Source of the DNA: a virus
Direction: 5' to 3' (one strand)
Length of the DNA: 64,000 nucleotides
Virus record (IMG/VR): IMGVR_UViG_3300034061_000981
Span: 43,620 to 107,619 of that record
The notes under the pieces are model-generated. The model saw only the letters and a list, made by a program, of their open reading frames with translations, was not told the DNA's origin and searched no databases. The number at the start of each line of letters is the position of its first letter. Position 1 is the first letter of the stretch. Below, piece after piece: positions 455 through 29,909 of the stretch. The translations under genes and the position numbers were made by a program.

Positions 455-1774
455 ATGAGTGATAAAAAAATTAATTTAGTATATAATTGGCTTGGTCCTA
501 AAGGTCCTATTCCAAACACAGAGGTACCTAATGTATTACATTTAGCTGCCGTAGGAGAATCAACTACTACTAATAGCCCAAACTTTTGGTGTGACAGTAT
601 ATGGCATTTAATGTTTTGCAACAAACCAGGATATGGTATTAGTAGTGCTGTATTCTTAGGTCTAGATGATGTGTTCATTTATCCTTTTTCTATTACATGG
701 AGAATAAATTTTACTTCTTATTTTCATAAAGGTGGAGGGATTTTAGAGTACTCACATACCAATGGTCAACTTAAACATTTAGTTGCAACTGGCAAAGGGT
801 TTATTTTAATTGAAGATGCCGCAGAAGCTCACATTGAACCATCTCAAATACAAGCAATGCATACATATTTTAATGAGAGTCATATTCCCATGAATAAGAT
901 AATATATGTTACTGGCTGTATGAATGCACAAGCATTGTATGATGAGTGGTGTCTAATAAATGGAATTAATCATCCTAGGGATAAAATGAATATATTATCA
1001 TATCCCACTTCACAAAATAGTTTAGCAACATATTTTAACGTATGGAACCCTCAAGTTCCTGAATATGATACTGAACGTGTTCCTGAAAAATTATTTTTAT
1101 CCTGGAATCGTAGATTTAGACCACATAGAACTGCAATGGCATTTGGTTTAGATAAACTAGGATTAGTAGATAGATCATACTTAAGTATAGGATTAGTAGA
1201 CCCGGAAAATTCTGCAATGCACATAACACATACGTTGCAGGATCATTTACTTTATCAACTGGACATACAACCCGAAGATAAAATTCGTTTTGTAAACAAA
1301 TTACCATTAGTATTAGATGGTGAAAACGATGTTAATCAAATGTGTCAGGATTTCAATGATGCTACTAGACCCTTTTATCAGAATAGTTTAGTGAGTCTTG
1401 TATCCGAAACAAATTTTTTGGAAAACGAAGTATCATTAACTGAAAAATCATTTAAACCTTTTAAAGAAAAACACCCATTTATTACTGTAGGGGTCAACGG
1501 TACATTACAAGCATTAAGAGATATGGGATTTATAACGTTTGGAGCCTTTTGGGATGAAAGTTATGATAACATAATTAGCCCAATAGAGAGAATGGCAGCA
1601 ATTCTAAATGTATGTAAAGACATTGCTACTTGGGATAGTGAAAAAATTAAAGATTTTAGACGCAGAGTTAAACCTATCTTAGACCACAATTATGAAATAT
1701 TAAAAATAGAATATTCATATGTACTTGCGGCTAAGATAAAAGATAGAATATTTGAAATAATAAATAACAAATGA
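455..1774 (+). CDS. Putative glycosyltransferase, GT10-like paralog 1
   Basis: FLSWNRRFRPHR, SLVSETNF, TEKSFKP, HPF, GF.TF..FWDESYD motifs shared with seven other ORFs. Confidence 0.55.
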   Translation: MSDKKINLVYNWLGPKGPIPNTEVPNVLHLAAVGESTTTNSPNFWCDSIWHLMFCNKPGYGISSAVFLGLDDVFIYPFSITWRINFTSYFHKGGGILEYSHTNGQLKHLVATGKGFILIEDAAEAHIEPSQIQAMHTYFNESHIPMNKIIYVTGCMNAQALYDEWCLINGINHPRDKMNILSYPTSQNSLATYFNVWNPQVPEYDTERVPEKLFLSWNRRFRPHRTAMAFGLDKLGLVDRSYLSIGLVDPENSAMHITHTLQDHLLYQLDIQPEDKIRFVNKLPLVLDGENDVNQMCQDFNDATRPFYQNSLVSLVSETNFLENEVSLTEKSFKPFKEKHPFITVGVNGTLQALRDMGFITFGAFWDESYDNIISPIERMAAILNVCKDIATWDSEKIKDFRRRVKPILDHNYEILKIEYSYVLAAKIKDRIFEIINNK

Positions 1775-2748
1775 AAAAAATATTAGTATGCGGTGCAGGA
1801 GGATTCATTGGATCACACCTGGTAGAAAAATTGAAAGAACAAGGTCATTATGTAATAGGTTCTGACCTTCATTATCCGTTATACAATGAAACTCCAGCAG
1901 ATGAGTTTTATATTATGGACTTGCGTGAACAAGAGAATGTTCGTAGATTAATCACTAGTGACATTGATGAGATATACCAACTAGCGGCTGATATGGGAGG
2001 CGCCGGCTATATCTTTACAGGTGAGCATGATGCTGACATTATGCATAACAGTTGTCAAATCAATTTGAACATATTAGATTCAATGGTTAAATCCAAGGTT
2101 AAAAAAGTTTTCTATAGTTCAAGCGCATGTATGTATCCAAGTCATAATCAGGAAGATCCTGATAATCCTTTATTAGCAGAAGATAGCGCATATCCTGCAA
2201 ACCCTGACAGCGAGTATGGTTGGGAGAAACTGTTCTCAGAACGTTTATATATGACATATGGGCGTAACTATAACTTGGACGTTCGTATCGCACGTTTTCA
2301 CAACATCTTTGGCCCAAGAGGTTCTTGGGATAATGGTAAAGAAAAAGCACCAGCGGCATTGTGCCGCAAAGTAGCACTATGCAAAGATGGTGGTGTTATT
2401 GACGTATGGGGCCCGGGCAATCAAACACGTTCATTCTTGTTTATTGATGAATGTGTTGAAGGTATGCAACGTATTATGACTAGTGAGTATACTAAGCCAG
2501 TCAATCTAGGTAGCACTAGAATGATTAGTATCAATAACTTAGTTTTACTGATTGCAAAATTAAATGGAAAAAATGTTAATATTCGTAACATTGATGGGCC
2601 ACGCGGTGTTATGGGTCGTAATAGTGACAACAGATTAATTAAAGAAACAATTAATTGGGCACCAGATGAAGATTTAGAATCAGGCTTAATTAAAACATAT
2701 AACTGGATTGATGAACAAATTAGTAGAGGCATCAAAGACAACAAATGA
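1771..2748 (+). CDS. NAD-dependent epimerase, GDP-mannose 3,5-epimerase-like
   Basis: GAGGFIG, LAADMGG, SSACMYP, YGWEK, EKAPAALCRK motifs. Confidence 0.9.
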   Translation: MKKILVCGAGGFIGSHLVEKLKEQGHYVIGSDLHYPLYNETPADEFYIMDLREQENVRRLITSDIDEIYQLAADMGGAGYIFTGEHDADIMHNSCQINLNILDSMVKSKVKKVFYSSSACMYPSHNQEDPDNPLLAEDSAYPANPDSEYGWEKLFSERLYMTYGRNYNLDVRIARFHNIFGPRGSWDNGKEKAPAALCRKVALCKDGGVIDVWGPGNQTRSFLFIDECVEGMQRIMTSEYTKPVNLGSTRMISINNLVLLIAKLNGKNVNIRNIDGPRGVMGRNSDNRLIKETINWAPDEDLESGLIKTYNWIDEQISRGIKDNK

Positions 2749-3770
2749 TTACATGTTATTTTGTAAATCACGTATCTTTACGAGGTAGAGAACATATAGT
2801 TGTTAATGAAATAGAAAATATAAATCCTGATATAATTATAGGATTGTGTTTAGAAGAATTTGATTACCACTATATTTTTGAAAAATTCTTCAAGGTAATT
2901 CAACCATATTTAATACGTACAAACAAAATAATGAAACTTATTGCACCGTACGTTGATTCTAAACCTGTACCTAATAATATAATAGTTGAAAAGTCATATG
3001 GATATTATCATTGGTCATGTGGTTCAATAGAGAATTGCATAGAAAATAAAATAGAGTTCAACTTTACTGATACTACTAAACTGTTTACAAATTATAATAA
3101 CAATAACAAATATCAACGTGCTATGTTGGTAGATGAGTTTGTAAAAAATGATTTATTGAAAGACGGGATTGTAACATTAAATAAACCCGAAATGAGACTA
3201 GCCGACGGCCGCCCATATATTTATAAATATCACGATGGTTCAAAAATAGTTGATGAGACAGATTTTGTGTTAAATGCAAAGTATGAATACAATGCTGGAA
3301 TGTTTCCAAAAAGTTATTTTAATGGATTTATAGATATAGTTTCAGAATCTACATATGATGCTGGTGAGTTTTTTATTACTGAAAAAACAGCTAAACCAAT
3401 TGGTGCCCTTAAACCTTTTTTAGTTTTTGGTCCACCACTAGTGCACCAACATTTATATAATAATTATGGCATTGAATATTATAATGAATTGTTTGACTAT
3501 TCATTTGATATAGAAGAAGATATTGAAAAACGTATTGATGGAATAGTTCAAAATTTATTAAGGTTAAGACAACTTTCAAATGCTGAACTTATATCTATGT
3601 ATAAATCTATTAACGATAAATTAATATGTAATAGAAAAAACTATTTACAAATTAAAACAGATCGAGTTTATATACCCGAATCTTTAAAATTTTTAGAACA
3701 GTATGACAATGGTGTTAAATGCTACGGTGATACTAAAGCGAGTATATTACATATGATAGGAATAAAATGA
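2745..3770 (+). CDS. Putative glycosyltransferase, GT10-like paralog 2
   Basis: DIVSEST..FFITEKTAKP..KPF..ELFDYSFD. Confidence 0.5.
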   Translation: MITCYFVNHVSLRGREHIVVNEIENINPDIIIGLCLEEFDYHYIFEKFFKVIQPYLIRTNKIMKLIAPYVDSKPVPNNIIVEKSYGYYHWSCGSIENCIENKIEFNFTDTTKLFTNYNNNNKYQRAMLVDEFVKNDLLKDGIVTLNKPEMRLADGRPYIYKYHDGSKIVDETDFVLNAKYEYNAGMFPKSYFNGFIDIVSESTYDAGEFFITEKTAKPIGALKPFLVFGPPLVHQHLYNNYGIEYYNELFDYSFDIEEDIEKRIDGIVQNLLRLRQLSNAELISMYKSINDKLICNRKNYLQIKTDRVYIPESLKFLEQYDNGVKCYGDTKASILHMIGIK

Positions 3771-4651
3771 CAAAAAAATATATTATTGGTTTAGGATGTA
3801 GCTGGACACAAGGTGAAGGTGGTTATCCTGAAGAAATATGGAAACAATATAACGGCAGCCCTCAACGTGCATTAAGATGTAAAGATGATTACGCTATACG
3901 ACACTATGAACATGAAAATAGTTGGGTTAACGTATTATGTCGTGACCACTTCCCTGAATATGAACCTGTTAATCTAGGTGTCAAAGGTATAGGTAATCGT
4001 GCGGCGGTAGGACAATTACATTTTTGTGATAAAGTAGACTTTAACAATAGTACTGGTATTATTGTATTAATGTTAAGTGGTTTTGAAAGATTAGATTTGT
4101 TCCAGCAATATCCACATACTAGTGACGGGCAGAATGATTTTTATTCTAAGAATGAATTTCGTCATTATAAATGGAGAACAGCATGGCCAATTCCAAATCA
4201 TAGTACAGGCGATACATCATACTGGGATGTGTATGCTAGAGAATTATGGAGTGAACAGTTTGTCTCCGCACATCAAATGTGTAATTTATTAGAACTACAA
4301 ACGTTTGCAAAAGCATATGGGTATAAAGTTGTTGTGGCTAATGGATTTAATCAACGGCAAGAGGGTATTAAACAATACCTACGTGATAATGCAGGTTATT
4401 TAGTTGATAAATTTGATTGGTCAACGTATATACATGATACTACTCCATATTCCGCTTTTGTACAAAAGCTAGTAGAACTTGATGGACTAATTCAACCTGA
4501 GCATTGGGGTGGATTCCATCAATATTATAGTCAGCGTGATTGGCCTGCTAAATACTTGACAAACTGTGACGGAGCACATCCTACAGTAGATGGTTATAAA
4601 GCAATAGGAAGTGAACTTGCACGGTTTATCAAATTACGCGGATATGTCTAA
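3767..4651 (+). CDS. SGNH/GDSL hydrolase-like protein
   Basis: N-terminal GCSWTQG, NLGVKGIGN, C-terminal DGAHP. Confidence 0.6.
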   Translation: MTKKYIIGLGCSWTQGEGGYPEEIWKQYNGSPQRALRCKDDYAIRHYEHENSWVNVLCRDHFPEYEPVNLGVKGIGNRAAVGQLHFCDKVDFNNSTGIIVLMLSGFERLDLFQQYPHTSDGQNDFYSKNEFRHYKWRTAWPIPNHSTGDTSYWDVYARELWSEQFVSAHQMCNLLELQTFAKAYGYKVVVANGFNQRQEGIKQYLRDNAGYLVDKFDWSTYIHDTTPYSAFVQKLVELDGLIQPEHWGGFHQYYSQRDWPAKYLTNCDGAHPTVDGYKAIGSELARFIKLRGYV

Positions 4652-6581
4652 ACGAAAAATTAGTTTTGTAAACCCAAACTTTTCACAAGGACCCAGAGAG
4701 TTTAACGCATATTACTTGCCTTATACTCCTGCCGTTCTTTGGGCATACAGCCAGCAATTCCCTAAAATATCAAACAATTATGAGCTAGGTGATTTCATTT
4801 GGCGCAGAGATTTAATTGAAGAAGCAGTTGAATTATTGAAAGATAATGACGTTGTTGGCTTTAGTACATATGTTTGGAACCGTAGCTATAATGCAGTGCT
4901 TGGTCGTGAATTAAAAAAGGCCAACCCAAACATATTCATTATTGCTGGTGGACCTGAATACCCCATAGAGAAACCAGACTTTTTTGTAAAGTACCCCTTC
5001 ATTGATATATGTGTGAAACTTGAAGGTGAAATTTCAATGAAAAAAATACTCATTGAAAGATTAAAAGATAAACCAGACTATACAACTATTCCAGGACTGT
5101 TAATTAATGACAACGGCAACACAATTGATACGGGTGATAGTAAACGCATTGAAGATTTAGATAGTATTCCTAGTCCATATCTATTGGGTATATTTGATAA
5201 ATTGATGAAGAAGCATCCCGAAGTACGTTGGAATGTAACACTAGAAACAAATCGTGGTTGTCCCTATGCTTGTACATTCTGTGACTGGGGTAGTTTAACA
5301 TACAACAAAGTTAAGAAATTTGGACTAGAACGTGTTTACCATGAACTAGAATGGATTGGTAAAAATGGTTGCGACTTTGTAAGTATTACCGATGCAAACT
5401 TTGGTATCTTTGCTGAACGTGATAGTTTAATTGCTGACAAACTAATTGAAGTGCAAAAGAAGTGGGGTAACCCACGTGCTTATACAATTGCATGGGCAAA
5501 GAATCAAAAACAAGAAGTTGTTGATATTGTACATAAGTTGATTTACGAAGGTGGAAGCAAGATGGGTCTTAATTTATCTGTACAGTCAATGGATGACGAT
5601 GTATTAGATATCATTAAGCGCAAGAACCTTGAAATGAATAAGATTGAAGAAGTATTTAAACTGTGTGAGGAATATAATATTCCACTATACACAGAACTAA
5701 TTCTAGGATTGCCCGGCGAAACTATGAGAAGTTGGAAAGAAAACTTTTATAAACTATATAAGAGTGGCAACCATACTGGCATTACTGTATATCAAGCACA
5801 ATTACTTGAGAACGCAGAGATGAATTTAACTCAGCGTAAGATGTATAAACTAGAGGGCAAGATTGTTTATGACTATCTAGTTGGTACATACAATGAACAT
5901 GAATTAAAAGAGGGTATTGAAGTAATTGTTAGTACCCGTGACTTACCACGTGAACAAATGATTGAAGCACAAGTGTTTAGTTGGTTTATGAATACTTTTC
6001 ATATTAATGGCATAACCAATTATATCTCACGTGTGTTGTATAAAAAACACAATATTGAATACAGTGACTTCTATGATAAACTATGGAAGTATGTTGCAGA
6101 AGATGAATGGTTAGCAAGCGAAGTTAAACGTATTGAAGATCATTACGAGAAGTGGACTACTGACGGGTTAATCAATCATACTCCAATTGAGGGTATGGAG
6201 ATTCATGGCTGGAATCTAATTCACAGTACAGTAATTAATTTGCACAGCGCAAGCAAACATAATCATATCTTTAATGTAATTGAAAAGTTCCTACGTAGTG
6301 AGTATGATATTGAAGAAAGTCTATTACAAGACTTAATGACATTCCAGCGTACATTCTTAATTGACTATAACGAGATTCAGAACTATACAAAAACTATTAC
6401 GTTTAAGCATGACATTCCTGGCTATGTGCAGAATACACATGATTTAAATACTGAATCTACATATGAGTTTGAATTCCCGGAAGATCATAACATGTCATTA
6501 CAACGTTTCTGCGAACAGATTTTCTTTGCACGTAGAAGAAACTTTGGTAAAGCGTGGATAACTAAAAATGGCACTAATTAA
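4644..6581 (+). CDS. B12-binding radical SAM protein (class B methyltransferase-like)
   Basis: GFSTYVWN and GGPE cobalamin-domain motifs; RGCPYACTFC (CxxxCxxC); start placed at ATG 4644. Confidence 0.85.
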   Translation: MSKRKISFVNPNFSQGPREFNAYYLPYTPAVLWAYSQQFPKISNNYELGDFIWRRDLIEEAVELLKDNDVVGFSTYVWNRSYNAVLGRELKKANPNIFIIAGGPEYPIEKPDFFVKYPFIDICVKLEGEISMKKILIERLKDKPDYTTIPGLLINDNGNTIDTGDSKRIEDLDSIPSPYLLGIFDKLMKKHPEVRWNVTLETNRGCPYACTFCDWGSLTYNKVKKFGLERVYHELEWIGKNGCDFVSITDANFGIFAERDSLIADKLIEVQKKWGNPRAYTIAWAKNQKQEVVDIVHKLIYEGGSKMGLNLSVQSMDDDVLDIIKRKNLEMNKIEEVFKLCEEYNIPLYTELILGLPGETMRSWKENFYKLYKSGNHTGITVYQAQLLENAEMNLTQRKMYKLEGKIVYDYLVGTYNEHELKEGIEVIVSTRDLPREQMIEAQVFSWFMNTFHINGITNYISRVLYKKHNIEYSDFYDKLWKYVAEDEWLASEVKRIEDHYEKWTTDGLINHTPIEGMEIHGWNLIHSTVINLHSASKHNHIFNVIEKFLRSEYDIEESLLQDLMTFQRTFLIDYNEIQNYTKTITFKHDIPGYVQNTHDLNTESTYEFEFPEDHNMSLQRFCEQIFFARRRNFGKAWITKNGTN

Positions 6582-7704
6582 TAAAGACAATACATGGTTT
6601 CTTGGAGTTAACGAATATCATCATCGTCCTATATCATATACAAGAGATATACATAACTTTGAAGATACTGATTATTGGTACGCTGAATTCTTTGGTCCTG
6701 AGTCGATTAATTATTTATTAAACCCCGATGTATTGTCAATAGACGCATTAACTAGAATACAAAATAAAACGTGTGTATTAATGTTGAATAATGCACATGA
6801 AGCGTTTCACACAGTGGTAAAATCAATATATGATATTGCTGTAATACAATTGAGTATTCCCCCGGAACAAATTATATTGATAAGTGAATCAGCCATCATT
6901 GACAAAGAAGTAGAAAAAATAGCAAACGAATATAATTTAGGAAAAATTAAAACTGAATGGATGCGAATGTTTGAACGTGCTGTTTCAACGATAAACCATA
7001 AACCGTTAGAAACATTAAAATATAAACATTACGATAAGAAGTTCGTTAATTTTAATAGACGTTGGAGATTGCATCGTCCTGCATTGGTTGCGTTATTAGA
7101 AATAAAAAGTTTATTAGATAAGGGTTATGTTAGCCTTGCAAAGACAGAAGAATATAATGACACATGGGATGTATTCTTTGAACATATGTCTTGGACGTTA
7201 AGACATAATCCTAATTTTGTTGATACTTTTGTTCGTAATAAAGAAAAAATTAGTAATATTCCAGCAATGATATTGGACCAAACTGATATGACAATCAACC
7301 ATGCACACAAACTAACAGACTCAACCGACATATATTATGAAAATACATACTTTAGCGTAGTATCCGAAACTAATTTTTTTAAAGCAATTGCTGAAGGGAT
7401 ATTTGTTAGTGAAAAGATTTTTAGACCAATACTAAAAAAACATCCATTTATTTTAGTGTCCAGACCACATACGCTAAGTATAATGAGAAATATTGGATAT
7501 AAAACATTTGATTCTATTATCAATGAGGATTACGACAAAGAAGAAGATGATTGTAAACGTATGTTAATGATAGTAGATGAAATAGATAGGTTATGTCATT
7601 TAAATGATGATCAATTACGTGTGTTTTTACATAAGGCAAAAATGATCACGGAGTATAATTATATGATACTTTTTAGTAAAAGGGAGTTTTTAACAAAATT
7701 ATGA
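6568..7704 (+). CDS. Putative glycosyltransferase, GT10-like paralog 3
   Basis: FVNFNRRWRLHR, SVVSETNF, SEKIFRP, HPF. Confidence 0.55.
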   Translation: MALINKDNTWFLGVNEYHHRPISYTRDIHNFEDTDYWYAEFFGPESINYLLNPDVLSIDALTRIQNKTCVLMLNNAHEAFHTVVKSIYDIAVIQLSIPPEQIILISESAIIDKEVEKIANEYNLGKIKTEWMRMFERAVSTINHKPLETLKYKHYDKKFVNFNRRWRLHRPALVALLEIKSLLDKGYVSLAKTEEYNDTWDVFFEHMSWTLRHNPNFVDTFVRNKEKISNIPAMILDQTDMTINHAHKLTDSTDIYYENTYFSVVSETNFFKAIAEGIFVSEKIFRPILKKHPFILVSRPHTLSIMRNIGYKTFDSIINEDYDKEEDDCKRMLMIVDEIDRLCHLNDDQLRVFLHKAKMITEYNYMILFSKREFLTKL

Positions 7705-8522
7705 TTACAGATTTAACAAAATACAAAAGAATATTTGCGTTTGGATGTAGTTTTACGTCCTACATTTACCCTACATGGGCTGACATTATATATAAATCAA
7801 TGTCACCTGATGTTGAATTTTATAACTTTGGCAAATCAGGTGGCGGTAATGTCTTTATTGCAAATAGAATTACAGAAGCAAATAGAAAGTATAAATTTAC
7901 AGAAACTGATTTAGTGGTAGTATTATGGTCTACCCATGCTAGAATTGATTTTTTTAAAACAGACAGTGGTTGGAAAACCCCCGGTAATATATATACTCAA
8001 GGAATGTTGAGTGAACATTCAGTTCGTGAGTTAGAAGATTTAAATTGGTTTTTGCTTAGAGATTTATCTATGATTGATTTAACTACATCATATTTAAATA
8101 ATCTACCATGTGGTTCAATCAAATTAATGTCAGTTCCATTTAATTATGAAAGCAGATATAAAAATAAAGTTTTGTTGAATAAGTATCTTACAACTTCTAT
8201 AATAGAAACATACAGTGAACTACTTAAAGAATATCCTAACCCATCATTGTATGAATTTATGAATTATAAATGGTCATCATCTATAAAATATAAACATCAT
8301 CATCATCCGGAACAAGATGTTTTTATTGATTATCATCCCACTCCGGTTGATTACGCAAACTATTTAATTAAGTGTAATGTACCAATAACACAAGAGGCAA
8401 TTAATTACGCACATGAATCATTGGATAAAATGTTAGTTGAGGGAATAACACATCCTGACATAGTTACTATGTTCCCTGATTGTGACGAAAGAGTTAGTAA
8501 TGCATTTAAACAACTATGGTAA
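7701..8522 (+). CDS. SGNH/GDSL hydrolase-like protein
   Basis: GCSFT, NFGKSGGGN, DYHP. Confidence 0.6.
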   Translation: MITDLTKYKRIFAFGCSFTSYIYPTWADIIYKSMSPDVEFYNFGKSGGGNVFIANRITEANRKYKFTETDLVVVLWSTHARIDFFKTDSGWKTPGNIYTQGMLSEHSVRELEDLNWFLLRDLSMIDLTTSYLNNLPCGSIKLMSVPFNYESRYKNKVLLNKYLTTSIIETYSELLKEYPNPSLYEFMNYKWSSSIKYKHHHHPEQDVFIDYHPTPVDYANYLIKCNVPITQEAINYAHESLDKMLVEGITHPDIVTMFPDCDERVSNAFKQLW

Positions 8523-9517
8523 AATTATGTTATAACCCAGTTGATGGCATTGAGACAGATAAAATTATAGCTGATATCAATAAGTTTAATCCTTCAAAAA
8601 TCATTATTTTTAATGAATTAGAATGGGAATTAAAACATATTAATTTCGAATTTGTTCAATTATTAAAAGACAGAAATATTGAAATAGAAATAATATATGG
8701 AAGTTTCTATGACAATTCTTATGATAAGTATTGCAACCGAATGGGATTGGATAATAGTAATCTGACATTCTGGCCTACATATTGGATAAATTGGACGGAG
8801 ATATGTTTAAAAGGCGAAATAGATTATACTAAACACACAGTTAACACTGATTTTAAATATCCATTTATCTGTTTAAACAACAAAAATCATAAGCATAGAG
8901 CCGCATTGATTGATCATTTAGCAAAGTATAATTTACTTAATAAAGGAGTAGTAACTTGGCACAAATTTGCTAATTGTATGCATGGATATGAATTTAAATA
9001 TTATGATGATAGTATTAGATTAATTGATGATGACTTTGTGACTAAATTAGATTCATTCTTAATACCTAAACAATGGCATGAATCGTTTTTGCATGTCGTG
9101 GGTGAGGCTACAATCAATACACATTTTATTACAGAGAAAACAATTATTCCCATATTAATGAAAAAGCCATTTGTTTGTATTTCTAAACAAGGATATAATC
9201 AACGATTATTAGATTTGGGTTTTGTTTTGTACGATGAAATAATTGATTATTCATATGATAATTTAGAAGATGTAGGTGATAGAGCAGATAAACTATGTGA
9301 AAGCATTAGTAAAATTCCTACAAACTATTCAAAATTGTATGAGATACTAAAACCAAAAATAGAACATAATTATAATAGATGCTTAGAGATTATCAGGGAT
9401 AAAAAATATATTCCTAAATCTGCAATCGACCGTGTCGCTAATATGAAAGATAGTGATTATATACCAATGCATACTGACCTTAGGTATGAAAGAATGTTGA
9501 AAGAATGTAATGATTAA
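8516..9517 (+). CDS. Putative glycosyltransferase, GT10-like paralog 4
   Basis: FICLNNKNHKHR, HVVGEAT, FITEKT, KPF, DEIIDYSYD. Confidence 0.55.
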   Translation: MVKLCYNPVDGIETDKIIADINKFNPSKIIIFNELEWELKHINFEFVQLLKDRNIEIEIIYGSFYDNSYDKYCNRMGLDNSNLTFWPTYWINWTEICLKGEIDYTKHTVNTDFKYPFICLNNKNHKHRAALIDHLAKYNLLNKGVVTWHKFANCMHGYEFKYYDDSIRLIDDDFVTKLDSFLIPKQWHESFLHVVGEATINTHFITEKTIIPILMKKPFVCISKQGYNQRLLDLGFVLYDEIIDYSYDNLEDVGDRADKLCESISKIPTNYSKLYEILKPKIEHNYNRCLEIIRDKKYIPKSAIDRVANMKDSDYIPMHTDLRYERMLKECND

Positions 9518-13671: not shown

Positions 13672-13695
13672 CTACTTGAAGTAAGGAGATATTGT

Positions 13696-20135: not shown

Positions 20136-21625
20136 ACTATATCGGTATAAGTGCAGGCTTCCATGATGCGGCCCTAAGCGTCATAGATAGTAACGGCAAT
20201 ATTGTCTTTGCTGGTCATAGTGAACGCTACAGCAAACAAAAACATGACAAACATTTGTCAATGGGTATTGTTGAGGATGCGTTAACTTATTGTAACGATG
20301 AAGTTGAGATTCACTATTACGAACGTCCAGGGATGAAGTTTTTGCGACAATTACGTTCAGGTGAAAAGCCTAAACTATCTAGTTTATCTGTTAAAGAAAC
20401 AATAGGCACAGGCTTATTGCATAAACTACAAGATGGTCGTGGTGGCAAAGTGCATACACATAATCATCACTTGAGTCATGCCGCCGCCGGCTTTCAAACA
20501 AGCCCCTACGATGATGCTACTGTAGTTGTTATCGATGCTATCGGTGAGTTTGATACTATTAGTATCTGGAACGCATGGTATGATAAGAACGGTAAGGCAC
20601 AATATAAAAAGTTGTGGGGGCAAAAGTATCCAGACAGTATTGGCTTATTCTATTCAGCAATGACTGAAAGAGTAGGCTTACGCCCACTAGATGAAGAATA
20701 CATACTGATGGGTATGGCAGCTTACGGTAAATCAAATCCAGTAGATAAAATGTCTACTGAATTAATAGAATCATACAAAGACATTACATTCAAAGACAAT
20801 TTACATACAGGTGTACCAAATACTTTCTTAGAAGGTGTTGACGAAATGAGTATTGCTACTAGCGCACAATTGATTGCTGAACAACTAATAATGAATGTTA
20901 TTAGCAAAGCAAAAAGTTTAGGTGGTAGTAAAAACCTAGTATACGGTGGCGGTGTAGCATTAAATTGTTTAGCAAATAGATTGCTAGGAGAGTATTATGA
21001 CAACATTTGGATTATACCTAATCCCGGTGACGCTGGTTCTAGTCTCGGAGCAGCCTGTATCGGTTATGGTAAACGTGTTAATTGGACTAATGCTTTCCTC
21101 GGCTATGATATTACTGGGCCTTATCCTGCTAATCGTATCATTGATTGTTTGGTTACTGATAAGATTGTGGGGGTTGCTAGTGGGAGGGCGGAATTCGGCC
21201 CGAGAGCATTAGGCAATAGAAGTTTATTAGCTGATCCAAGAGGAACAGAAATTAAGGATAAAGTAAATGAAATTAAACGTAGACAAAAGTTCAGACCTTT
21301 CGCCCCGGTCATTCTGGAGGAGTATGCTGATGATTATTTTGATATGCCTCCTGGCTTCAATAATAGTAGGTATATGCAAGTCATCGCTCGCTGTAGGCAT
21401 CCTGACTTATTTCCTGCTATCGTTCACGCTGACGGGACTAGTAGGGTACAGACTGTTCCGAAAGATGGAAGTGGAATAAGAGAACTATTAGAGAAGTGGT
21501 ATGTATTAACAGGTTGCCCAATGCTACTTAATACAAGTTTAAATATTCGAGGAGAGCCAATGGTAAATGACCGAAAAGATGCGGATCGCTTTGAATTAAT
21601 GTATAATGTAAAAGTTATATCATAA
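20132..21625 (+). CDS. O-carbamoyltransferase (NodU/CmcH/TobZ family)
   Basis: HDAA, HHLSHAA, MGMAAYG, GGVALNC, EFGPRALGNRS, FRPFAP, LLNTSLN. Confidence 0.95.
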   Translation: MNYIGISAGFHDAALSVIDSNGNIVFAGHSERYSKQKHDKHLSMGIVEDALTYCNDEVEIHYYERPGMKFLRQLRSGEKPKLSSLSVKETIGTGLLHKLQDGRGGKVHTHNHHLSHAAAGFQTSPYDDATVVVIDAIGEFDTISIWNAWYDKNGKAQYKKLWGQKYPDSIGLFYSAMTERVGLRPLDEEYILMGMAAYGKSNPVDKMSTELIESYKDITFKDNLHTGVPNTFLEGVDEMSIATSAQLIAEQLIMNVISKAKSLGGSKNLVYGGGVALNCLANRLLGEYYDNIWIIPNPGDAGSSLGAACIGYGKRVNWTNAFLGYDITGPYPANRIIDCLVTDKIVGVASGRAEFGPRALGNRSLLADPRGTEIKDKVNEIKRRQKFRPFAPVILEEYADDYFDMPPGFNNSRYMQVIARCRHPDLFPAIVHADGTSRVQTVPKDGSGIRELLEKWYVLTGCPMLLNTSLNIRGEPMVNDRKDADRFELMYNVKVIS

Positions 21626-21635
21626 GTAAGAGTCT

Positions 21636-24600
21636 ATGCTAAGAGATGTATTTTATTACGGTAAAAAGCCCAACGTTCACCCAAGAGAAAAATTTGCAAC
21701 TTCATTAGAAGATGCAAGACAGCAATCAACTACAGAACATTTTTGGATAATCAATGAATACTGTGATTATCGCAATTTTGATTGGGACTTTGATTTTGAT
21801 TTTTTACCTGACGAAGATGTATGGGCAGAAGCACATATTAACGTGTGGCCTAGCCAACATCAAAAAGATAGTGGCACCTGGCTAGTTAATACTGATAACA
21901 CATCATCACTAATAATCTATCGTGCAGATGTTGACGTTGTTAACCGTAAGAAAATTAAAACAGATGAATGGGTTGAGTTAGATTCAATTGACAACTCTAA
22001 GTTTGATTTTAGTTGGCATCCTGATCCGACAGATCCTCCTTATATCTATAAATGGGGTAATAAATTCGCACCTGTACGATTTAAACCATGCTTAGAATAT
22101 CATACACCGGGCGCTACTCAAATTAAGTATATGGATCAGATTGCTGAATTGTTGCCCAACGACTGTTGGGTTGAAGTTCAACAAATAGATAAAGATAAAT
22201 TTGACATGTCATGGAGACCTGATCCAATGGAACCTCCTATGATATATATATGGGGTAATAAGTATGTACCTGCAAAAACAGCATCTACATTAGAGTATCA
22301 TGTTCCCGGTGCAACGGAAAAGAAATTCATGCCGGAAAAGCTAACATTAGTAGCTAACATGAATAATTGGGATCTATTAGAAAACGTTGATAAAAATAAT
22401 TTTGACTTTGCTTGGATACCTGATCCAACTAGTCCTCCATATATCTATGTATGGGGTAATCAATGGAATAAGCCAGAAGATAAAATCTCTATTCAATATG
22501 TAGTAGAGGGCGCAACCGAATACAAATACATGGAAGCACGTACTACACGCAAGCCATGCATGGACAACTGGATAGTACCTGCTAATGTTGATGTAAGTAA
22601 TTTTGATTTTAGTTGGGAACCTAGTCCAGCTGACCCTGCGTTTATCTACCAGTTTGGTACGCAATGGCAAAAGACTAATGGCCCTCGTTATATAGTAGAA
22701 GATGCAACAGAAGTTAAGTTTGTATCAACAATGTCTGCTAAAGCGTTACCTACAAAAGATAATTGGACATTACCTAGTAATATTGATATTGCTGATTTTG
22801 ACTTCAGTTGGCACCCAGATGATACTAGCCCTCCATACATTTATGTATTTCCTACACAGTGGGCATTAAGCGGTGGACCAATATATACAGTTGACGGCGC
22901 CACAGAAATTAAGTATGTAGAAGACATGGTTGCTAAAGCAATCCCCGATAAAACTAACTGGGAAGTCCCTACATACATTGATAGTGAATCATTTGATTTC
23001 TCATGGCATCCATATGCACAAGATGAACCATACATTTATCAATTTGGTACACAATGGCAAAAGACAGGTGGTCCGGTATATAATACACCTGGTGTTCATA
23101 AGAATAGTGCAATCAAATATATTGATACACGTATTATAAAGTCAAAACGTTTACCTTCTAAAAGGGGATTTGCTACGCTAGGTAACTTACAAATCAAAGA
23201 TTTTGATTACTCATGGCATCCAGATACAACTGACGAGCCATACATCTATGTGTTCGGCAACAACTTCTACTCAGGTGAGTTCATGCCTACAATTGAATAC
23301 GTTGTACCGGGTGCAAAACAAATTAAGTATGTACATGACATTGTTGCTACGCTAGCAGTTGATATGACAAACTGGGAAGTACCGGAGAACGTTGATGTTA
23401 CAGGAATTGATTTCAGTTGGAAACCTAATCCCAAAGATCCTCCATTCATCTATCAGTTTGGTACACAACATCAAAAAACAGGTGGGCCTAGATATGTTGT
23501 GCCAAGCGCAACAGAAGTCAAGTACGTTGAAGAACCTAAAGCAAAGGCGTTTGCCTCAAAAGATAACTGGGAAGTTCCTACTAATATTGATGTAGCTGAA
23601 TTTGATTTCTCTTGGCACCCGGATTATAGCGAACCACCATACATATATGTGTTTGGAACACAGTGGGCGTTAACTGGTGGACCTAAGTATATTGTACCTG
23701 GCGCAACAGAAGTCAAGTACATTGATACTATTGTTGCAAAGGCTGCCCCCAACAGAACGCACTGGTCAGTACCTGATGATATTGATTCTACTACGTTTGA
23801 CTTCTCATGGCACCCATATGCCGAAGATGAACCTTATATCTATCAATTCGGTACTCAGTGGCAGAAAACAGGCGGTCCGATATACATGCCACCTGAAGCT
23901 GACGCAACCTGCTTTACAAAATATATTGACACACGTATTCTTAAAGCAACTAAGTTGCCTCATAAGAAATATTGGTCAGTCGCTGAGGGTGTTAAAGTAG
24001 CAGAGTTTGATTACTCATGGCACCATGATGAGACAGAAGAACCATATATCTATGTGTTCGGTAATAATCTCTATTCAGGTGAGATTATGCCTACTGTAAT
24101 TTATACTGTTCCGAGCGCAACAAAAACAAAATACATTTCTACTGTTCTTGCTAAGTTAGCTAACAATATGGACAACTGGGATGTACCCTCTAATTTAGAT
24201 ACAAGTGACTTTGACTTTAGCTGGGTACCTAATCCCAAAGAACCTGCATACATATATCAGTTCGGCACACAACATCAACGTACAGGTGGACCTCGTTACA
24301 TAGTCCCGGGCGCCACTGAAGTTAAGTATATTGATGTTAAAGCTAAACGATTGCATACTAGAGACAACTGGATCGTCCCTGATAACATTGATGAATCAAG
24401 TATTGATTTCAGTTGGCATCCAGACGATACAGAATCTCCATACATATATCATTTTGGAACACAATGGAATAATAGGGGAGGCCCGGAGTATCATGTTCAG
24501 GGAGCTACTGAATTAAAATATTCATCTAACATTGTCGGTAAAACTAAAAAGTCTAAGCAAGGTTGGAAATCATTAATTCAGATTGAAGAAGATAAGTTTG

Positions 24601-27326
24601 ACTACAGTTGGGTACCTCATCCGTACGATCCACCTTACATTTATGTATTTGGCAATCAGTGGAACGTTGCTGAGTTAGAACCTACTGTTGAATATGTTGT
24701 TGAAGGTGCTACTGAAAAGAAATATATACATGATATTGTAGCAACTGTTGCTCAACGTAAACATGATTGGAACATACTTGAAGATGTTGAGAGTTTCGAT
24801 TATTCATGGAGACCTAATCCAACTGATCCAGCATATACTTACGTGTTTGGTAATAAACAATATCCCGGCAACATCATGCCTACTGTCACCTTGACTATCG
24901 AAGGTGCAACACAAGAAAAATTTGTTGATGATATTGTTGCTACCTTGGCACAAGATATTAGTAAGTTTACTAACACAAAATTAATTAAAGAGTTTGATTA
25001 TTCATGGAGACCGAATCCTAAGGATCCCCCGTATATATACCAGTTTGGTACACAATGGGCAAAGACACATGGTCCACAATATATCATTGAAGGTGCAACA
25101 GAAACAAAATATGTTGAAAGTGTAAAAGCAGTTATTGCACCAAACATGACTCATTGGGAAGTTCCTTCTGGTGTCAATGTGAGCAAATTTGATTTCTCTT
25201 GGCATCCAGATGCTAACAGCCCACCCTACATCTATCAGTTTGGTACTATCAGTGATCCTAGCGATGGTCCTAGATATGTTGTTCCCGGAGCAACAGAAGT
25301 TGTTAACATGGAAAGAATTGAAATTGTAGGAAACGTATTTGTTGATTATCCTAAATACTTTATTGAGACAACACTAGAGGCATTGATTGAGCAACATAAA
25401 GGTGAAGTATTCTGGGCATTGAATAATGAGATTGATTACACTAACTTTGATTTCAACTGGAGACCTGATATTCAACAGGCTCATTATGTACACGCATTTG
25501 GTTCAAGTGAGAGTGAAACAACACAAACTTACTTTATCAATAGTAACATGTGGGTGAACGGATACAGAGAACTAAATTGGGTCAAAGATGAAAAACTTGA
25601 CGACCAAACACTTGCTAAGTTGTTTAAGAAACCAGATATGTTCTTTGTTGATAAGGGTAATAGTGAAGCACAAGACCGTTTTGATAAACTAAAACAACGA
25701 TTCCCTACTATACAAAAAACAAGATATTTAAATACGTGGGTTGATACTATCAACCGTTGTATTAATCGTGCAACTACTAACTTGTGCTGGATATTAAATT
25801 CAGAATTAAATTACGATCACTTTGACTTTGAATATTATCCTAATCCTTGGCAGATGAAAATGGTTCATGTGTTCGGGACTCAGTGGAGTCACTGGGGTAC
25901 AACGTTCATGGTTAACCGCGAAACGTTTACTACTGATACCAAGTATGTCAAAATCATTGAACATTTGAATAATATTAACTTTGTCAAAGATCGTACAGCT
26001 ATAGCAACAAATATATTATATGACACAGTTTACATTGACCATGGAAACAAACCAGTTCCAATGAACACATTGGTCATTGAATATGATGAAAGTTATCTCA
26101 AAACGTTTAAAAAGTTACTAGAAAAGTTACCTAATAAAAAAGAACATTTTGTTTGGGTTATTAGTTCTATATGTGATTACAATGGTTTTGACTTTACATA
26201 CATTTGTGATCCATTTGCACGTGACCAACTACATGTATTCCCTAGCGACAAACAAAAGTTTGGTGATACATTCTTAGTTAATGTGAACAAACTACGTGAG
26301 TTAATTGATAATGTTGAAGAATTAAAAGATATTAAGGTTAACTACAATCAACACATGCGAGTAAAACGTTTACCCGCGCCAACTATTATTACAGAAGGTG
26401 ATACACATGTCTCTGCTATTCATATTGATTTTGATTTCCCTTATGCTACGTTTCAAACGATTGACAACCAAGAAATAAAAGTTGTTGATGTTGAGCCAAT
26501 GAATCTTTGGAGTAAAGAAACAAAAACTATTCAAATTACTAGTGTCGGTGGAACAAGAATTGTTGTTCCTAAAGAAACAAGAGATCATGTAAAGCGTGAA
26601 TTGTATGATTATCCATACATTCAAACTAACAAAACATTAGCCAAGTCTACTCCAATGGACATTGTATTCTTAAGCAATGGCGAGACTGGTGCAGACGAAA
26701 ACTATGAACACTTAATAAGGACAACACAGGGGTTATCTAATCGTGTTGTGCGTGTTGATGGGGTTAATGGTCGTGTGCAAGCATATCATGCCGCGGCAGA
26801 AGCAAGCAACACACCTTGGATGTTTACTGTATTTGCTAAGTTAAAAGTTAGTAATAAGTTTGATTGGAACTGGCAACCAGATAGATTACAGATACCAAAA
26901 CATTATGTATTCCATGCAAAGAATCCAGTTAACGGTTTAATATATGGTCACCAAGCTATGATTGCGTATAATAAGAAACTAACACTTGCTAACAAAGGTA
27001 AGGGTCTTGACTTTACAATGGATGATGAGCATGAGGTTGTAGAAATTGTTTCGGGTACAGCTAATTTCAATACTGATGAATGGAGTACATGGCGTACTAG
27101 TTTCCGTGAAGCACTAAAGTTACGTGCCAATAATGATGAGATTAGTAAGAATCGCTTAGAGTTTTGGTTGACAGTTGGGTCAGGCAAGTTTTCCCAATAC
27201 AGTATAGATGGTGCGGCTGATGCGGTAGACTACTATGAATCAGTCAATGGTGATTTTGAGAAGTTAAAGTTGTCATATGATTGGCCGTGGTTAAACCAAA
27301 TGTTCAATAAAAAATATAAGAAATGA
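21636..27326 (+). CDS. 1896-aa repeat protein with about 17 tandem W/P-rich repeats and a C-terminal glycosyltransferase-like region
   Basis: Repeated FDFSWHP..PPYIYQFGTQW..TGGP.Y.VPGATEVKY; C-terminal DIVFLSNGE...RVDGVNG..AYHAAA. Confidence 0.7.
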   Translation: MLRDVFYYGKKPNVHPREKFATSLEDARQQSTTEHFWIINEYCDYRNFDWDFDFDFLPDEDVWAEAHINVWPSQHQKDSGTWLVNTDNTSSLIIYRADVDVVNRKKIKTDEWVELDSIDNSKFDFSWHPDPTDPPYIYKWGNKFAPVRFKPCLEYHTPGATQIKYMDQIAELLPNDCWVEVQQIDKDKFDMSWRPDPMEPPMIYIWGNKYVPAKTASTLEYHVPGATEKKFMPEKLTLVANMNNWDLLENVDKNNFDFAWIPDPTSPPYIYVWGNQWNKPEDKISIQYVVEGATEYKYMEARTTRKPCMDNWIVPANVDVSNFDFSWEPSPADPAFIYQFGTQWQKTNGPRYIVEDATEVKFVSTMSAKALPTKDNWTLPSNIDIADFDFSWHPDDTSPPYIYVFPTQWALSGGPIYTVDGATEIKYVEDMVAKAIPDKTNWEVPTYIDSESFDFSWHPYAQDEPYIYQFGTQWQKTGGPVYNTPGVHKNSAIKYIDTRIIKSKRLPSKRGFATLGNLQIKDFDYSWHPDTTDEPYIYVFGNNFYSGEFMPTIEYVVPGAKQIKYVHDIVATLAVDMTNWEVPENVDVTGIDFSWKPNPKDPPFIYQFGTQHQKTGGPRYVVPSATEVKYVEEPKAKAFASKDNWEVPTNIDVAEFDFSWHPDYSEPPYIYVFGTQWALTGGPKYIVPGATEVKYIDTIVAKAAPNRTHWSVPDDIDSTTFDFSWHPYAEDEPYIYQFGTQWQKTGGPIYMPPEADATCFTKYIDTRILKATKLPHKKYWSVAEGVKVAEFDYSWHHDETEEPYIYVFGNNLYSGEIMPTVIYTVPSATKTKYISTVLAKLANNMDNWDVPSNLDTSDFDFSWVPNPKEPAYIYQFGTQHQRTGGPRYIVPGATEVKYIDVKAKRLHTRDNWIVPDNIDESSIDFSWHPDDTESPYIYHFGTQWNNRGGPEYHVQGATELKYSSNIVGKTKKSKQGWKSLIQIEEDKFDYSWVPHPYDPPYIYVFGNQWNVAELEPTVEYVVEGATEKKYIHDIVATVAQRKHDWNILEDVESFDYSWRPNPTDPAYTYVFGNKQYPGNIMPTVTLTIEGATQEKFVDDIVATLAQDISKFTNTKLIKEFDYSWRPNPKDPPYIYQFGTQWAKTHGPQYIIEGATETKYVESVKAVIAPNMTHWEVPSGVNVSKFDFSWHPDANSPPYIYQFGTISDPSDGPRYVVPGATEVVNMERIEIVGNVFVDYPKYFIETTLEALIEQHKGEVFWALNNEIDYTNFDFNWRPDIQQAHYVHAFGSSESETTQTYFINSNMWVNGYRELNWVKDEKLDDQTLAKLFKKPDMFFVDKGNSEAQDRFDKLKQRFPTIQKTRYLNTWVDTINRCINRATTNLCWILNSELNYDHFDFEYYPNPWQMKMVHVFGTQWSHWGTTFMVNRETFTTDTKYVKIIEHLNNINFVKDRTAIATNILYDTVYIDHGNKPVPMNTLVIEYDESYLKTFKKLLEKLPNKKEHFVWVISSICDYNGFDFTYICDPFARDQLHVFPSDKQKFGDTFLVNVNKLRELIDNVEELKDIKVNYNQHMRVKRLPAPTIITEGDTHVSAIHIDFDFPYATFQTIDNQEIKVVDVEPMNLWSKETKTIQITSVGGTRIVVPKETRDHVKRELYDYPYIQTNKTLAKSTPMDIVFLSNGETGADENYEHLIRTTQGLSNRVVRVDGVNGRVQAYHAAAEASNTPWMFTVFAKLKVSNKFDWNWQPDRLQIPKHYVFHAKNPVNGLIYGHQAMIAYNKKLTLANKGKGLDFTMDDEHEVVEIVSGTANFNTDEWSTWRTSFREALKLRANNDEISKNRLEFWLTVGSGKFSQYSIDGAADAVDYYESVNGDFEKLKLSYDWPWLNQMFNKKYKK
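21990..25310 (+). repeat. About 17 tandem 65-70 aa coding repeats with a four-unit higher-order period
   Basis: Equivalent units begin at 22602, 23406 and 24210 (804-nt spacing). Confidence 0.85.
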
Positions 27327-28348
27327 ATTACGCATGTATTAATCAATGGAACAGGCCATCATGGTCTAGTTTCAAAGAAAAAGTAATGAACGGTAACTAC
27401 GAGAAGGTCATCTTGTTTGGTCAAAATGAGTGGGCATGGTTCTATCAGGGACCTGAGTTTTATGAACTAGTGGATTATTGTAAAGAAAAAAACATACATT
27501 TTGAGATTGTGACTGGCGCCAATGAAAAAAACTATCCATTTCAAATGGATCACGTTAAAATTAATTGGTGGGATACACATTGGATAGGTAAAACATATCA
27601 GGACTTGATATGCAATAATAAACCTACTGGATTGCCTCTTAGAGTCATTGATCCGTATAAAGATATTCAGTATGATCATCATTTTATATCAATGAACAAT
27701 AGACTACATAAACATAGATGTTTGTTCCTTGACTATATGGCTAAGCACGATTTGATGAAATATGGTGCAGTGTCAATTCACTATGGTGAACATTCTGTAA
27801 ATTATAAATGGCAATATCTTGACTATAAACCCATGTATCTATCAGATGGGGTAGAATTTAATCAGTATAAATTACCTGACCAATATTTTAATTCATTTGC
27901 ACAATTAATTAGTGAAAGTACAAACAAGGCTTTGTTTTTAACCGAAAAAACTGCAACTCCTTTGATAATAGGCAAACCATTTTTGGTTGCTAGCCAAATG
28001 AACTTTCATAAGATGTTACGTGAAATGGGGTTTCAGTTATATGATGAAATCTTTGATTACGAATTTGACAGTGAACCAGCTGTAAATAAACGTTATGATA
28101 TGATAATGCAAAACTTTGTTAGATTATGTAATATACCACTTAGCGAATTAAAATATTTACAACAACAGTTGGCACCGAAGATTATGCATAATAGAAACAG
28201 AGCTAAAGAGATTGCATATGATTTGAATCTCTACCCAAAAATTGTATTGGAAGTCATTGACCACTACAAAAAAACAGGAATCAATTTGGACAATAATACG
28301 GTGTATTTTCACTTGAATTTAGAAAGACACCGAGATTTAAAGTTCTGA
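27323..28348 (+). CDS. Putative glycosyltransferase, GT10-like paralog 8
   Basis: FISMNNRLHKHR, QLISEST, FLTEKTATP, KPF, DEIFDYEFD. Confidence 0.55.
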   Translation: MNYACINQWNRPSWSSFKEKVMNGNYEKVILFGQNEWAWFYQGPEFYELVDYCKEKNIHFEIVTGANEKNYPFQMDHVKINWWDTHWIGKTYQDLICNNKPTGLPLRVIDPYKDIQYDHHFISMNNRLHKHRCLFLDYMAKHDLMKYGAVSIHYGEHSVNYKWQYLDYKPMYLSDGVEFNQYKLPDQYFNSFAQLISESTNKALFLTEKTATPLIIGKPFLVASQMNFHKMLREMGFQLYDEIFDYEFDSEPAVNKRYDMIMQNFVRLCNIPLSELKYLQQQLAPKIMHNRNRAKEIAYDLNLYPKIVLEVIDHYKKTGINLDNNTVYFHLNLERHRDLKF

Positions 28349-29893: not shown

Positions 29894-29909
29894 TTATTAA
29901 TTAGATAAC

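Follow-up and report, generated by a model that had tools for sequence, protein, structure and literature searches.

Gene content and layout of the island

We analysed a 64,000-nt stretch of viral DNA (the window; bases 43620-107619 of the 107.6-kb IMG/VR contig IMGVR_UViG_3300034061_000981) that carries an island of genes that probably serve the biosynthesis of a tailored glycan (window 455-28348). Window coordinates refer to this stretch and genome coordinates to the whole contig, which has an estimated completeness of 30% and a GC content of ~33-38%. The source is a T4-related jumbo phage known from metagenomes only. Its terminase shares 49% identity with the enzymes of PA5oct and Phosso and 44% with the ones of GAP32 and a Vibrio jumbo phage, and the window also encodes a virion structural protein, a single-stranded DNA-binding protein and a helicase. 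The role of the island in building a tailored glycan is well supported: a glycosyltransferase (GT) fold is combined with sugar-nucleotide enzymes and tailoring enzymes of aminoglycoside type. The heavily modified glycan of the original prediction is thereby supported, and the virion as its site is favoured indirectly.

All genes between 455 and 28348 are located on the plus strand. Adjacent genes share 1-14 nt with each other (41 nt at 4611), and the island has only two gaps, 13636-13695 (60 nt, before 13696) and 21626-21635 (10 nt, before 21636). A seeming 81-nt gap before 20132 is occupied by a micro-gene of 32 amino acids (aa). The claim of a contiguous, translationally coupled block is thus confirmed. 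The features of the cluster and of the tail gene region upstream are the following (window coordinates unless marked; nicotinamide adenine dinucleotide, NAD; short-chain dehydrogenase/reductase, SDR; nucleoside diphosphate, NDP; uridine diphosphate, UDP; S-adenosylmethionine, SAM; pyridoxal phosphate, PLP; 2-oxoglutarate, 2OG; AlphaFold2, AF2).

genome 11503-30729, + strand: 6408-aa virion structural protein (phrog_10938; 48-54% identical in relatives; between baseplate wedge and fibre genes)
1-453, + strand: 3' portion of the upstream block's fifth radical SAM gene (whole gene at genome 43104-44072; Pfam Radical_SAM)
455-1774, + strand: GT-B paralog 1, 439 aa (BLASTP to the other paralogs; alignment)
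1771-2748, + strand: NAD-dependent sugar-nucleotide epimerase/dehydratase, extended SDR (Pfam Epimerase, E 9e-43; NCBIfam matches all below cut-off)
2745-3770, + strand: GT-B paralog 2 (BLASTP; alignment)
3767-4651, + strand: SGNH-like protein, GCS...GIGN...DGAHP (motifs; weak Lipase_GDSL match, E 0.13)
4611-6581, + strand: B12-binding radical SAM protein of the KedN5-like C-methyltransferase class (Pfam B12-binding and Radical_SAM)
6568-7704, + strand: GT-B paralog 3 (BLASTP; alignment)
7701-8522, + strand: SGNH-like protein, GCS...GGGN...DYHP (motifs; hhalign)
8516-9517, + strand: GT-B paralog 4 (BLASTP; alignment)
9510-10553, + strand: GT-B paralog 5, the modelled member (AF2, VIA, Foldseek)
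10553-11746, + strand: NDP-sugar 6-dehydrogenase, UDP-glucose type (Pfam UDPG_MGDP_dh_N and central domain; TIGR03026 146 bits, below cut-off)
11746-13635, + strand: fusion of GT-B paralog 6 (N-terminal) and MTS-type N-methyltransferase (C-terminal) (BLASTP; NPPH motif)
13660-13672, + strand: TTAAATA late-type promoter-like motif in the island's only sizeable gap (sequence)
13696-15978, + strand: B12-binding radical SAM protein, 760 aa (Pfam; 69% median identity in 28 loci)
15975-16565, + strand: short DegT-like PLP protein, 196 aa (Pfam DegT, E 8e-15)
16555-17526, + strand: StrB1-type amidinotransferase (profile against PDB; no Pfam match)
17523-19295, + strand: fusion of a cupin/2OG-oxygenase-like domain (aa 1-170) and GT-B paralog 7 (C-terminal) (motif; BLASTP)
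19292-20050, + strand: SGNH-like protein, DUF6071 (Pfam 26.9 bits against a cut-off of 27; motifs; in 32 loci)
20037-20135, + strand: basic 32-aa micro-gene (Shine-Dalgarno site; stop codon overlaps the carbamoyltransferase ATG)
20132-21625, + strand: NodU/CmcH-type carbamoyltransferase (Pfam; phrog_1601, E 2.5e-97)
21618-21635, + strand: CATAAGTA-N5-ATG signal before the giant gene (sequence)
21636-27326, + strand: giant 1896-aa protein (repeats; AF2; GT-A-like matches)
27323-28348, + strand: GT-B paralog 8, which closes the operon (BLASTP; alignment)

The 28-kb extent first proposed holds for the contiguous block but not for the start of the cluster, which lies ~9 kb further upstream. Since GT-A-like and radical SAM genes continue upstream as far as genome 34777, the cluster measures ~37 kb (genome 34777-71967), its left part being located outside the window. 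This upstream part comprises three GT-A-like genes and five radical SAM genes. Four of the latter are paralogs (genome 37927-43119), and in at least three proteins a SPASM domain lies N-terminal to the radical SAM core (39324-40598 and 41848-43119 by Pfam, 40586-41845 by 49% identity), an unusual domain order. No membrane segments were predicted in any cluster protein. Further upstream, on the same strand, a baseplate hub/lysozyme gene, wedge subunits, the 6408-aa virion structural protein and fibre-like proteins precede the cluster. The fibre-like proteins are rich in Thr, Ser and Asn, and one of them has a weak, below-cut-off match to the Peptidase_G2 chaperone end.

At least 78 IMG/VR loci keep the island, and island-bearing relatives reach 360-364 kb with terminal repeats. 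Synteny was compared with related phages using G002 (360 kb, complete) and G003 (335 kb, 95% complete). Both keep the whole order, tail genes and then the cluster. In this comparison core genes are 65-88% identical (78-80% for the dehydrogenase in relatives), whereas the GT-B paralogs are 38-51% identical and vary in number. G002 lacks the cassette of DegT, amidinotransferase and cupin-GT genes. The carbamoyltransferase gene adjoins the giant gene in 57 of the 78 loci. A megablast search with 25 kb against 50,697 phage records gave zero matches, and tblastn against phage isolates returned no match for a GT-B paralog or for the micro-gene. A scan of 185,579 species genomes found five loci only, mostly on short contigs of metagenome-assembled genomes; its sensitivity was low because a single peptide pattern was used. 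The 'moraphage' lineage of PMC12619734 was set aside, as it is a different clade.

Just past the island, a Gram-negative porin gene (window 29012-29893) is followed by genes for an AhpC-type peroxiredoxin and a CMD-family protein (window 29012-31102 in all). All three resemble auxiliary genes of host origin. A class I SAM methyltransferase gene (window 44457-45149) lies directly upstream of virion structural genes.

Glycosyltransferase family and tailoring enzymes

Eight proteins or protein halves encoded in the island are linked by BLASTP (genes at 455, 2745, 6568, 8516, 9510, 11746, N-terminal half, 17523, C-terminal half, and 27323). Neither Pfam nor the PDB gave a sequence match to this family. 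The AF2 model of the protein encoded at 9510-10553 (pLDDT 94.1, pTM 0.92) shows a GT-B fold, a fold of two Rossmann-like domains in which the C-terminal one holds the donor site. The 50 best VIA rows for this model are all GT-B enzymes, and the top Foldseek matches are likewise all GT-B. The eight GT-like paralogs of the original prediction, which could have failed on a missing GT fold, are therefore a family of GT-B fold with putative nucleotide-sugar transferase activity. The top VIA rows were the T4 beta-glucosyltransferase (Z 11.5, root-mean-square deviation 4.5, 256 residues aligned), the T4 alpha-glucosyltransferase (Z 10.6), FUT9 (9.8) and FUT11 (9.7). Because the leading structural rows are nearly tied, no CAZy family can be assigned.

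All eight paralogs share the residues N134, R141, E212, E222 and K223. Across 58 sequences the last four remain invariant and N134 nearly so. The paralogs resemble one another mainly in the C-terminal (donor) half, while their N-terminal halves diverge. Judged from the alignments, this pattern would fit one donor class used with different acceptors. A profile search found 14,048 representative clusters of the family among 1.84 billion proteins, and the member names in these clusters are only 'hypothetical' or evident mis-annotations. The alpha-1,3-fucosyltransferases of GT10 (FUT9, FUT11 and H. pylori FucT) share the GT-B fold with the paralogs (Z 8.8-9.8). In addition, the S/T-E...EKT...P...KPF motif of the paralogs resembles ENS..Y.TEK, which we take to be the GT10 motif. 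However, none of the eight paralogs matches Pfam Glyco_transf_10 (PF00852) even at E 10, nor is there a PDB sequence match. Membership in CAZy GT10 was rejected, as it fails by sequence and the structural scores are tied with those of many GT-B families.

T4 glucosyltransferases and arabinosyl-hydroxymethylcytosine phages decorate modified bases of phage DNA and thereby block restriction. The island paralogs resemble the T4 enzymes in their minimal GT-B fold and similar size, and these are their best structural neighbours (Z 10.6-11.5). Hypermodification of DNA, in which the GTs would decorate modified bases against restriction, was thus weighed for the island. The NPPH motif of the N-methyltransferase, of the kind used on exocyclic amines, would also suit this explanation, and diverse DNA glycans made by viral GTs have been described (Pyle et al. 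2024, as far as reported in PMC12619734). On the other hand, the Z lead of the T4 enzymes over the fucosyltransferases is less than 2, identity is only 8-9%, and eight paralogs stand against one or two in T4. The clade also lacks a hydroxymethyl-pyrimidine pathway. Only one gene of the window belongs to the relevant family:

window 37840-38739: thymidylate synthase (TS; ThyA family)

This protein is about equally similar to the TS of E. coli (265 bits) and of T4 (258 bits) and is a canonical TS. For absence tests we used four near-complete relatives, each at least 92% complete. Each of them carries one ThyA-family gene, and C5-cytosine methylase (PF00145) is absent from all four, as tested with positive controls. 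A search for Tet_JBP (PF12851) gave no match, a weak negative because the control was silent too. The original prediction had noted that the window holds no pyrimidine hydroxymethylase and had taken this to favour a non-DNA target weakly. None was found, although a ThyA-family gene is present, and the preference is strengthened by the single canonical ThyA-family gene and the missing C5-cytosine methylase in the relatives. A T4-type DNA glucosylation system was rejected for want of a hydroxymethyl-pyrimidine source. Together with promoter-like signals that are of late rather than early type, these data make DNA hypermodification very unlikely.

Most enzymes accompanying the paralogs were recognised as originally predicted. 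The epimerase and the dehydrogenase match Pfam, and both genes named as B12 radical SAM enzymes encode both domains. In each, a B12-binding domain precedes the radical SAM core, as is characteristic of class B. The protein at 4611-6581 reaches 248 bits with NCBIfam NF033712 (cut-off 700 bits), and that at 13696-15978 matches class-B radical SAM families. No equivalog can be given to either because every NCBIfam match is below the curated cut-off. The methyltransferase is the C-terminal half of the protein encoded at 11746-13635, supported by Pfam and its NPPH motif. A profile of 14 orthologs of the amidinotransferase matches StrB1 (1bwd) with E 3e-82 over the full length (residues 4-321) and AGAT with ~2e-47, and the catalytic-Cys motif GGCFHC is invariant in the 14 sequences. 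Full-length homology and a GGxxHC cysteine thus place it with the pentein-type StrB1/AGAT enzymes. The carbamoyltransferase carries Carbam_trans_N (E 2e-35) and Carbam_trans_C (E 2e-48), both above cut-off, in addition to its phrog_1601 match.

Three further assignments are weaker. The predicted aminotransferase is DegT-like and keeps the PLP Lys and the Asp of the IxDAA motif, but it is a 196-aa short form whose C-terminal domain is missing. This form is kept in 16 loci and in cyanophage S-SCSM2R. As it is conserved at the same length, it is not a broken gene. The putative 2OG oxygenase corresponds to the first 170 aa encoded at 17523-19295, where HVDH...PHAAAN (HxD...H) is conserved in 20 sequences. 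An Atlas lead of 0.90 (TM 0.78-0.79) points to viral clusters in which about one fifth of the members carry PF05118 (Asp_Arg_Hydrox), but PDB profile and sequence searches with this cupin-like domain found no match. GCS, GxGN and HP-type blocks occur in all three putative SGNH proteins, to be compared with GDS (block I), GxN (III) and DxxH (V) of SGNH hydrolases. The three are homologous to each other (hhalign 86.6%, E 4.5e-6, for the families of 3767 and 19292). For the SGNH fold they offer marginal matches to DUF6071 and Lipase_GDSL, and a PDB profile search was without match. Apart from the island, a second sugar locus (window 39040-42007) holds genes for an epimerase/dehydratase and for a DegT aminotransferase of full length; a radical SAM gene lies there on the other strand. 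This locus may supply an NDP-amino sugar.

Aminoglycoside tailoring uses the same enzyme classes (StrB1, TobZ, GenK/KedN5-class and BtrN-class), likely with the same chemistry on amino sugars. The island might therefore make a free specialised metabolite, that is, a soluble aminoglycoside-like oligosaccharide with guanidino, carbamoyl and C-methyl groups that acts on the host (e.g. on translation) or on competitors. The StrB1-type amidinotransferase, the TobZ-class carbamoyltransferase, the B12 radical SAM C-methyltransferase class, the Twitch/SPASM radical SAMs and DegT all speak for such a product, and similar genes were named 'antibiotic synthesis genes' by the authors of PMC12801897. Yet DHQ-synthase-type cyclitol synthase (PF01761) and inositol-1-phosphate synthase (PF01658) are absent from the contig itself and from the four relatives (with positive controls), and an aminoglycoside gene cluster was rejected for lack of an aminocyclitol core synthase. 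Since the relatives have no cyclitol synthase, an amine acceptor other than inosamine-phosphate is likely for the amidinotransferase. Compared with aminoglycoside clusters, the island also has far more GTs, no membrane-spanning exporter and the context of a phage late operon. No resistance gene was recognised among the family matches of the island, and a product of small-molecule size would hardly call for eight or more GTs and a repeat protein of 1896 aa. A free metabolite is thus quite improbable. The resemblance to a secondary-metabolite cluster, as first described, is correct for the enzyme classes but does not extend to an aminocyclitol synthase.

Giant repeat protein, micro-gene and regulatory signals

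The giant protein is composed of an N-terminal module, 17 repeats and 667 non-repeat aa with tandem GT-A-like domains. Repeat units are 64-70 aa long (~66) with the core FDFSWxPxP..PYIYxFG and a super-period of four units. Homologous giant genes in the 78 viral loci encode ~840 to 3085 aa, so the number of repeats appears free to vary. The C-terminus matches 897 proteins, the best 120 of which are 62-85% identical. PHROGs gave no match to the giant protein, and tblastn of the C-terminus against phage isolates found one 29% match only, in an unannotated region of RsoM2USA. Many related contigs (L005-L082) end inside or beside the giant gene, the repeats of which probably break assemblies.

The AF2 model of residues 1085-1896 (pLDDT 86.5) matches the multi-GT-A enzymes K4CP, LH3, LARGE1, WrtF and SunS, with Z 10-11.6 over 130-140 residues on two domains (model residues 243-376 and 586-729). 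The last GT-A-like domain has FAK where a stand-alone upstream paralog (genome 36980-37933) has DGD. Because the DxD motif is replaced in this way, catalysis by this domain is doubtful. The repeat core recurs inside each GT-A-like module, so that the repeats look like an amplified piece of the fold. It seems that the giant protein is a scaffold, a binding array or an acceptor and not a standard metal-dependent transferase.

Of the 78 loci, 57 carry the micro-gene. Its 38 protein variants all but agree in their C-terminus, which ends in RKRDPFIYK. Over the last 17 codons of the gene, 5105 synonymous but only 1307 nonsynonymous codon differences were counted. By these sequence comparisons it is under purifying selection, clade-specific and translationally coupled to the carbamoyltransferase gene. 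The micro-gene was not found beside the carbamoyltransferase genes of RsoM2USA or C48C1. A selected micro-gene inside the cluster could indicate that the radical SAMs, the 2OG oxygenase and the GTs mature a ribosomal peptide, such as the 32-aa product, in the manner of RiPPs, peptides that are made by the ribosome and modified after translation. RiPP pathways typically use SPASM and B12 radical SAMs. For 13696, RiPP C-methyltransferases head the NCBIfam rows, every one of them below cut-off, and the S-glycosyltransferases SunS and ThuS align with the last GT-A domain. However, the micro-peptide contains no Cys, Ser or Thr, and its gene is ~20 kb away from the SPASM genes. Neither a protease nor a recognition element was found among the family matches of the island, nor is there a membrane-spanning exporter-like protein, and the sugar-nucleotide genes and ~12 GTs indicate a glycan as the main product. 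Peptide maturation therefore has a very low probability.

Late-type motifs had been predicted before sub-blocks at 13665 and 21622. The former is confirmed: TTAAATA recurs at the same place before 13696 in ~11 divergent relatives with differing flanks. The latter is less clear. Of 41 distinct relatives, 33 have CATAAGTA-N4-6-ATG before the giant gene, but CATAAGTA/TAAGTA overlaps the upstream stop codon and its reading as a late promoter is uncertain for this reason. Two further kinds of signal were located:

genome 8077, 30732 and 31519; window 43066, 45164 and 48430: GATAAATA sites, 15-30 nt before structural gene starts
window 31396, 31752, 32229, 33592, 55128, 55415, 55687 and 56128: TTGACAATAAAT...TATAAT early-type promoters before small genes

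GATAAATA occurs in 7 copies in the contig, six of them at 15-30 nt before start codons, most of which belong to structural genes, and variants of it precede the first cluster gene and 13696. It is probably the late promoter of the clade, distinct from the T4 consensus TATAAATA. The latter was rejected as late signal, since it is not enriched (3 copies compared to 11 expected) and GATAAATA is the positionally informative variant. All eight sigma70-like TTGACAATAAAT...TATAAT promoters are located outside the island. These positions suggest that the island is expressed late, together with the tail genes.

Proposed acceptor of the glycan and relation to known systems

Besides the negative results described above, the priming transferases Bac_transf (PF02397) and Glycos_transf_4 (PF00953) are absent from the four near-complete relatives (with positive controls). 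A phage-encoded undecaprenyl-phosphate pathway was rejected because these enzymes and a membrane flippase/polymerase are missing; host enzymes could take this part. The absence tests therefore lower the probability of a DNA target, of an aminocyclitol and of a phage-autonomous lipid carrier, and a protein acceptor in the cytoplasm gives the best fit. The position behind the tail genes, the late-type motifs, the all-soluble enzymes and the lack of lipid-carrier priming enzymes point to the virion. In addition, the combination of a conserved core and divergent, swapped GT paralogs is reminiscent of surface-glycan loci. The module of radical SAMs, amidinotransferase and GT-A genes next to baseplate genes in Campylobacter phage CP220 speaks for the virion too, as do an amidinotransferase and a 2OG oxygenase from purified virions of cyanophage S-SCSM2R (PMC12801897). 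We tentatively favour the view that the island builds a tailored glycan on a phage (virion) protein.

In the mechanism we propose for this, the ~37-kb operon (genome 34777-71967) would be co-expressed with the tail genes. The dehydrogenase and epimerases would remodel nucleotide sugars of the host, the eight GT-B paralogs would add sugars successively, and several GT-A-like proteins would participate. Twitch/SPASM radical SAMs may oxidise sugar positions, DegT-type enzymes may add amines, and the StrB1-type enzyme could turn an amine into a guanidino group. C-methylation would be carried out by the B12 radical SAMs, N-methylation by the NPPH methyltransferase and O-carbamoylation by the carbamoyltransferase, while the SGNH-like proteins would add or remove acyl groups. 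The whole pathway would be cytoplasmic and without lipid carrier. As acceptor, a phage protein is envisaged: candidates are the upstream tail-fibre or baseplate proteins or the repeat array of the giant protein. If the repeat array is the acceptor, the DxD-less GT-A-like domains of the giant protein might serve as scaffold or glycan-binding platform. In this complete form, namely a guanidinylated, carbamoylated and C-methylated hetero-oligosaccharide that is edited by radical SAMs and built carrier-free in the cytoplasm on the phage's own tail or giant-repeat proteins, the proposal is possible but doubtful.

Several points weigh against a virion glycan. Tail-gene adjacency and promoter-like motifs are indirect indications, the acceptor is a candidate, and TAAGTA may not be a promoter since it overlaps a stop codon. 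The best structural neighbours of the GT-B paralogs are T4 DNA glucosyltransferases, if by less than 2 Z over GT10 fucosyltransferases. Peripheral GTs that act on host lipid-linked intermediates are also free of membrane segments. The enzymes detected in S-SCSM2R virions are paralogs and not the clustered copies (PMC12801897).

The solubility of the enzymes also bears on a remodelling of the host envelope. Here, soluble GTs at the inner membrane face would act on lipid A-core or undecaprenyl-linked intermediates, and host flippases would export the altered glycan. The changed cell surface might then serve superinfection exclusion or progeny release. Peripheral lipopolysaccharide and O-antigen GTs likewise have no membrane segments, the porin gene at 29012-29893 indicates that the phage touches the envelope, and the related cyanophage S-SCSM2R has kdsA/kdsB with its GT sets. 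Against this stand the absence of a priming transferase in the four relatives and of any membrane-spanning flippase, polymerase or transporter in the island. The signals are moreover late-type rather than early, and the position of the cluster behind the tail genes is constant. Envelope remodelling is thus unlikely, and we continue to favour a virion protein as acceptor.

Glycosylation of virions is known from mycobacteriophages (Freeman et al. 2023, Cell Host Microbe, as summarised in PMC12619734). According to this summary, their phage-encoded cytoplasmic GTs decorate the phages' own structural proteins, as proposed here, but with few GTs and simple glycans on the C-termini of capsid and tail-tube proteins. 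In the present cluster, ~12 GT-like genes stand beside 7 radical SAMs and enzymes for tailoring with amidino, carbamoyl and methyl groups, and the acceptor is a candidate only. Campylobacter phages CP220 and CPt10 encode five radical SAMs with a pentein-type amidinotransferase (PMC2853527). The CP220 block also contains two GT-A-like genes and adjoins baseplate lysozyme and PAAR genes. These phages therefore share with the island the combination of radical SAMs, amidinotransferase and GT-A-like genes in one block beside baseplate genes. However, the amidinotransferases are only 24-26% identical, and the block is much smaller and lacks the GT-B family, the carbamoyltransferase and the giant repeat protein. 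Cyanophage S-SCSM2R carries genes for a 195-aa DegT-like protein, a radical SAM, a GT, a 2OG oxygenase, an amidinotransferase (57% identical) and a GT2 in the same order as here, but its cassette is located in a hyperplastic region of a 244-kb T4-like genome and not behind tail genes. The cassette was interpreted as 'antibiotic synthesis genes', and paralogs of its amidinotransferase and 2OG oxygenase were detected in purified S-SCSM2R virions (PMC12801897).

The chemistry of the island is unusual for a virus. The operon makes up about one tenth of a 350-kb genome and brings together a GT-B family that lacks annotation, seven radical SAMs, and guanidino and carbamoyl chemistry. To our knowledge, phage-encoded glycosylation has been known only in simple forms, that is, DNA glucosylation, seroconversion and few GTs acting on mycobacteriophage virions. 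New in this analysis are the micro-gene, the elimination tests and the promoter footprints. If the proposal is true, a clade of abundant, uncultured jumbo phages would wear a proteoglycan-like virion coat made with chemistry otherwise found in aminoglycosides only, and this would be the first editing of a glycan by radical SAMs in a virus. Identification of the product would establish a viral glycan and a GT family that are both new and would give functions to the radical SAMs with N-terminal SPASM domains. It would also show how large aquatic phages use surface chemistry, be it for adsorption, shielding or stability.

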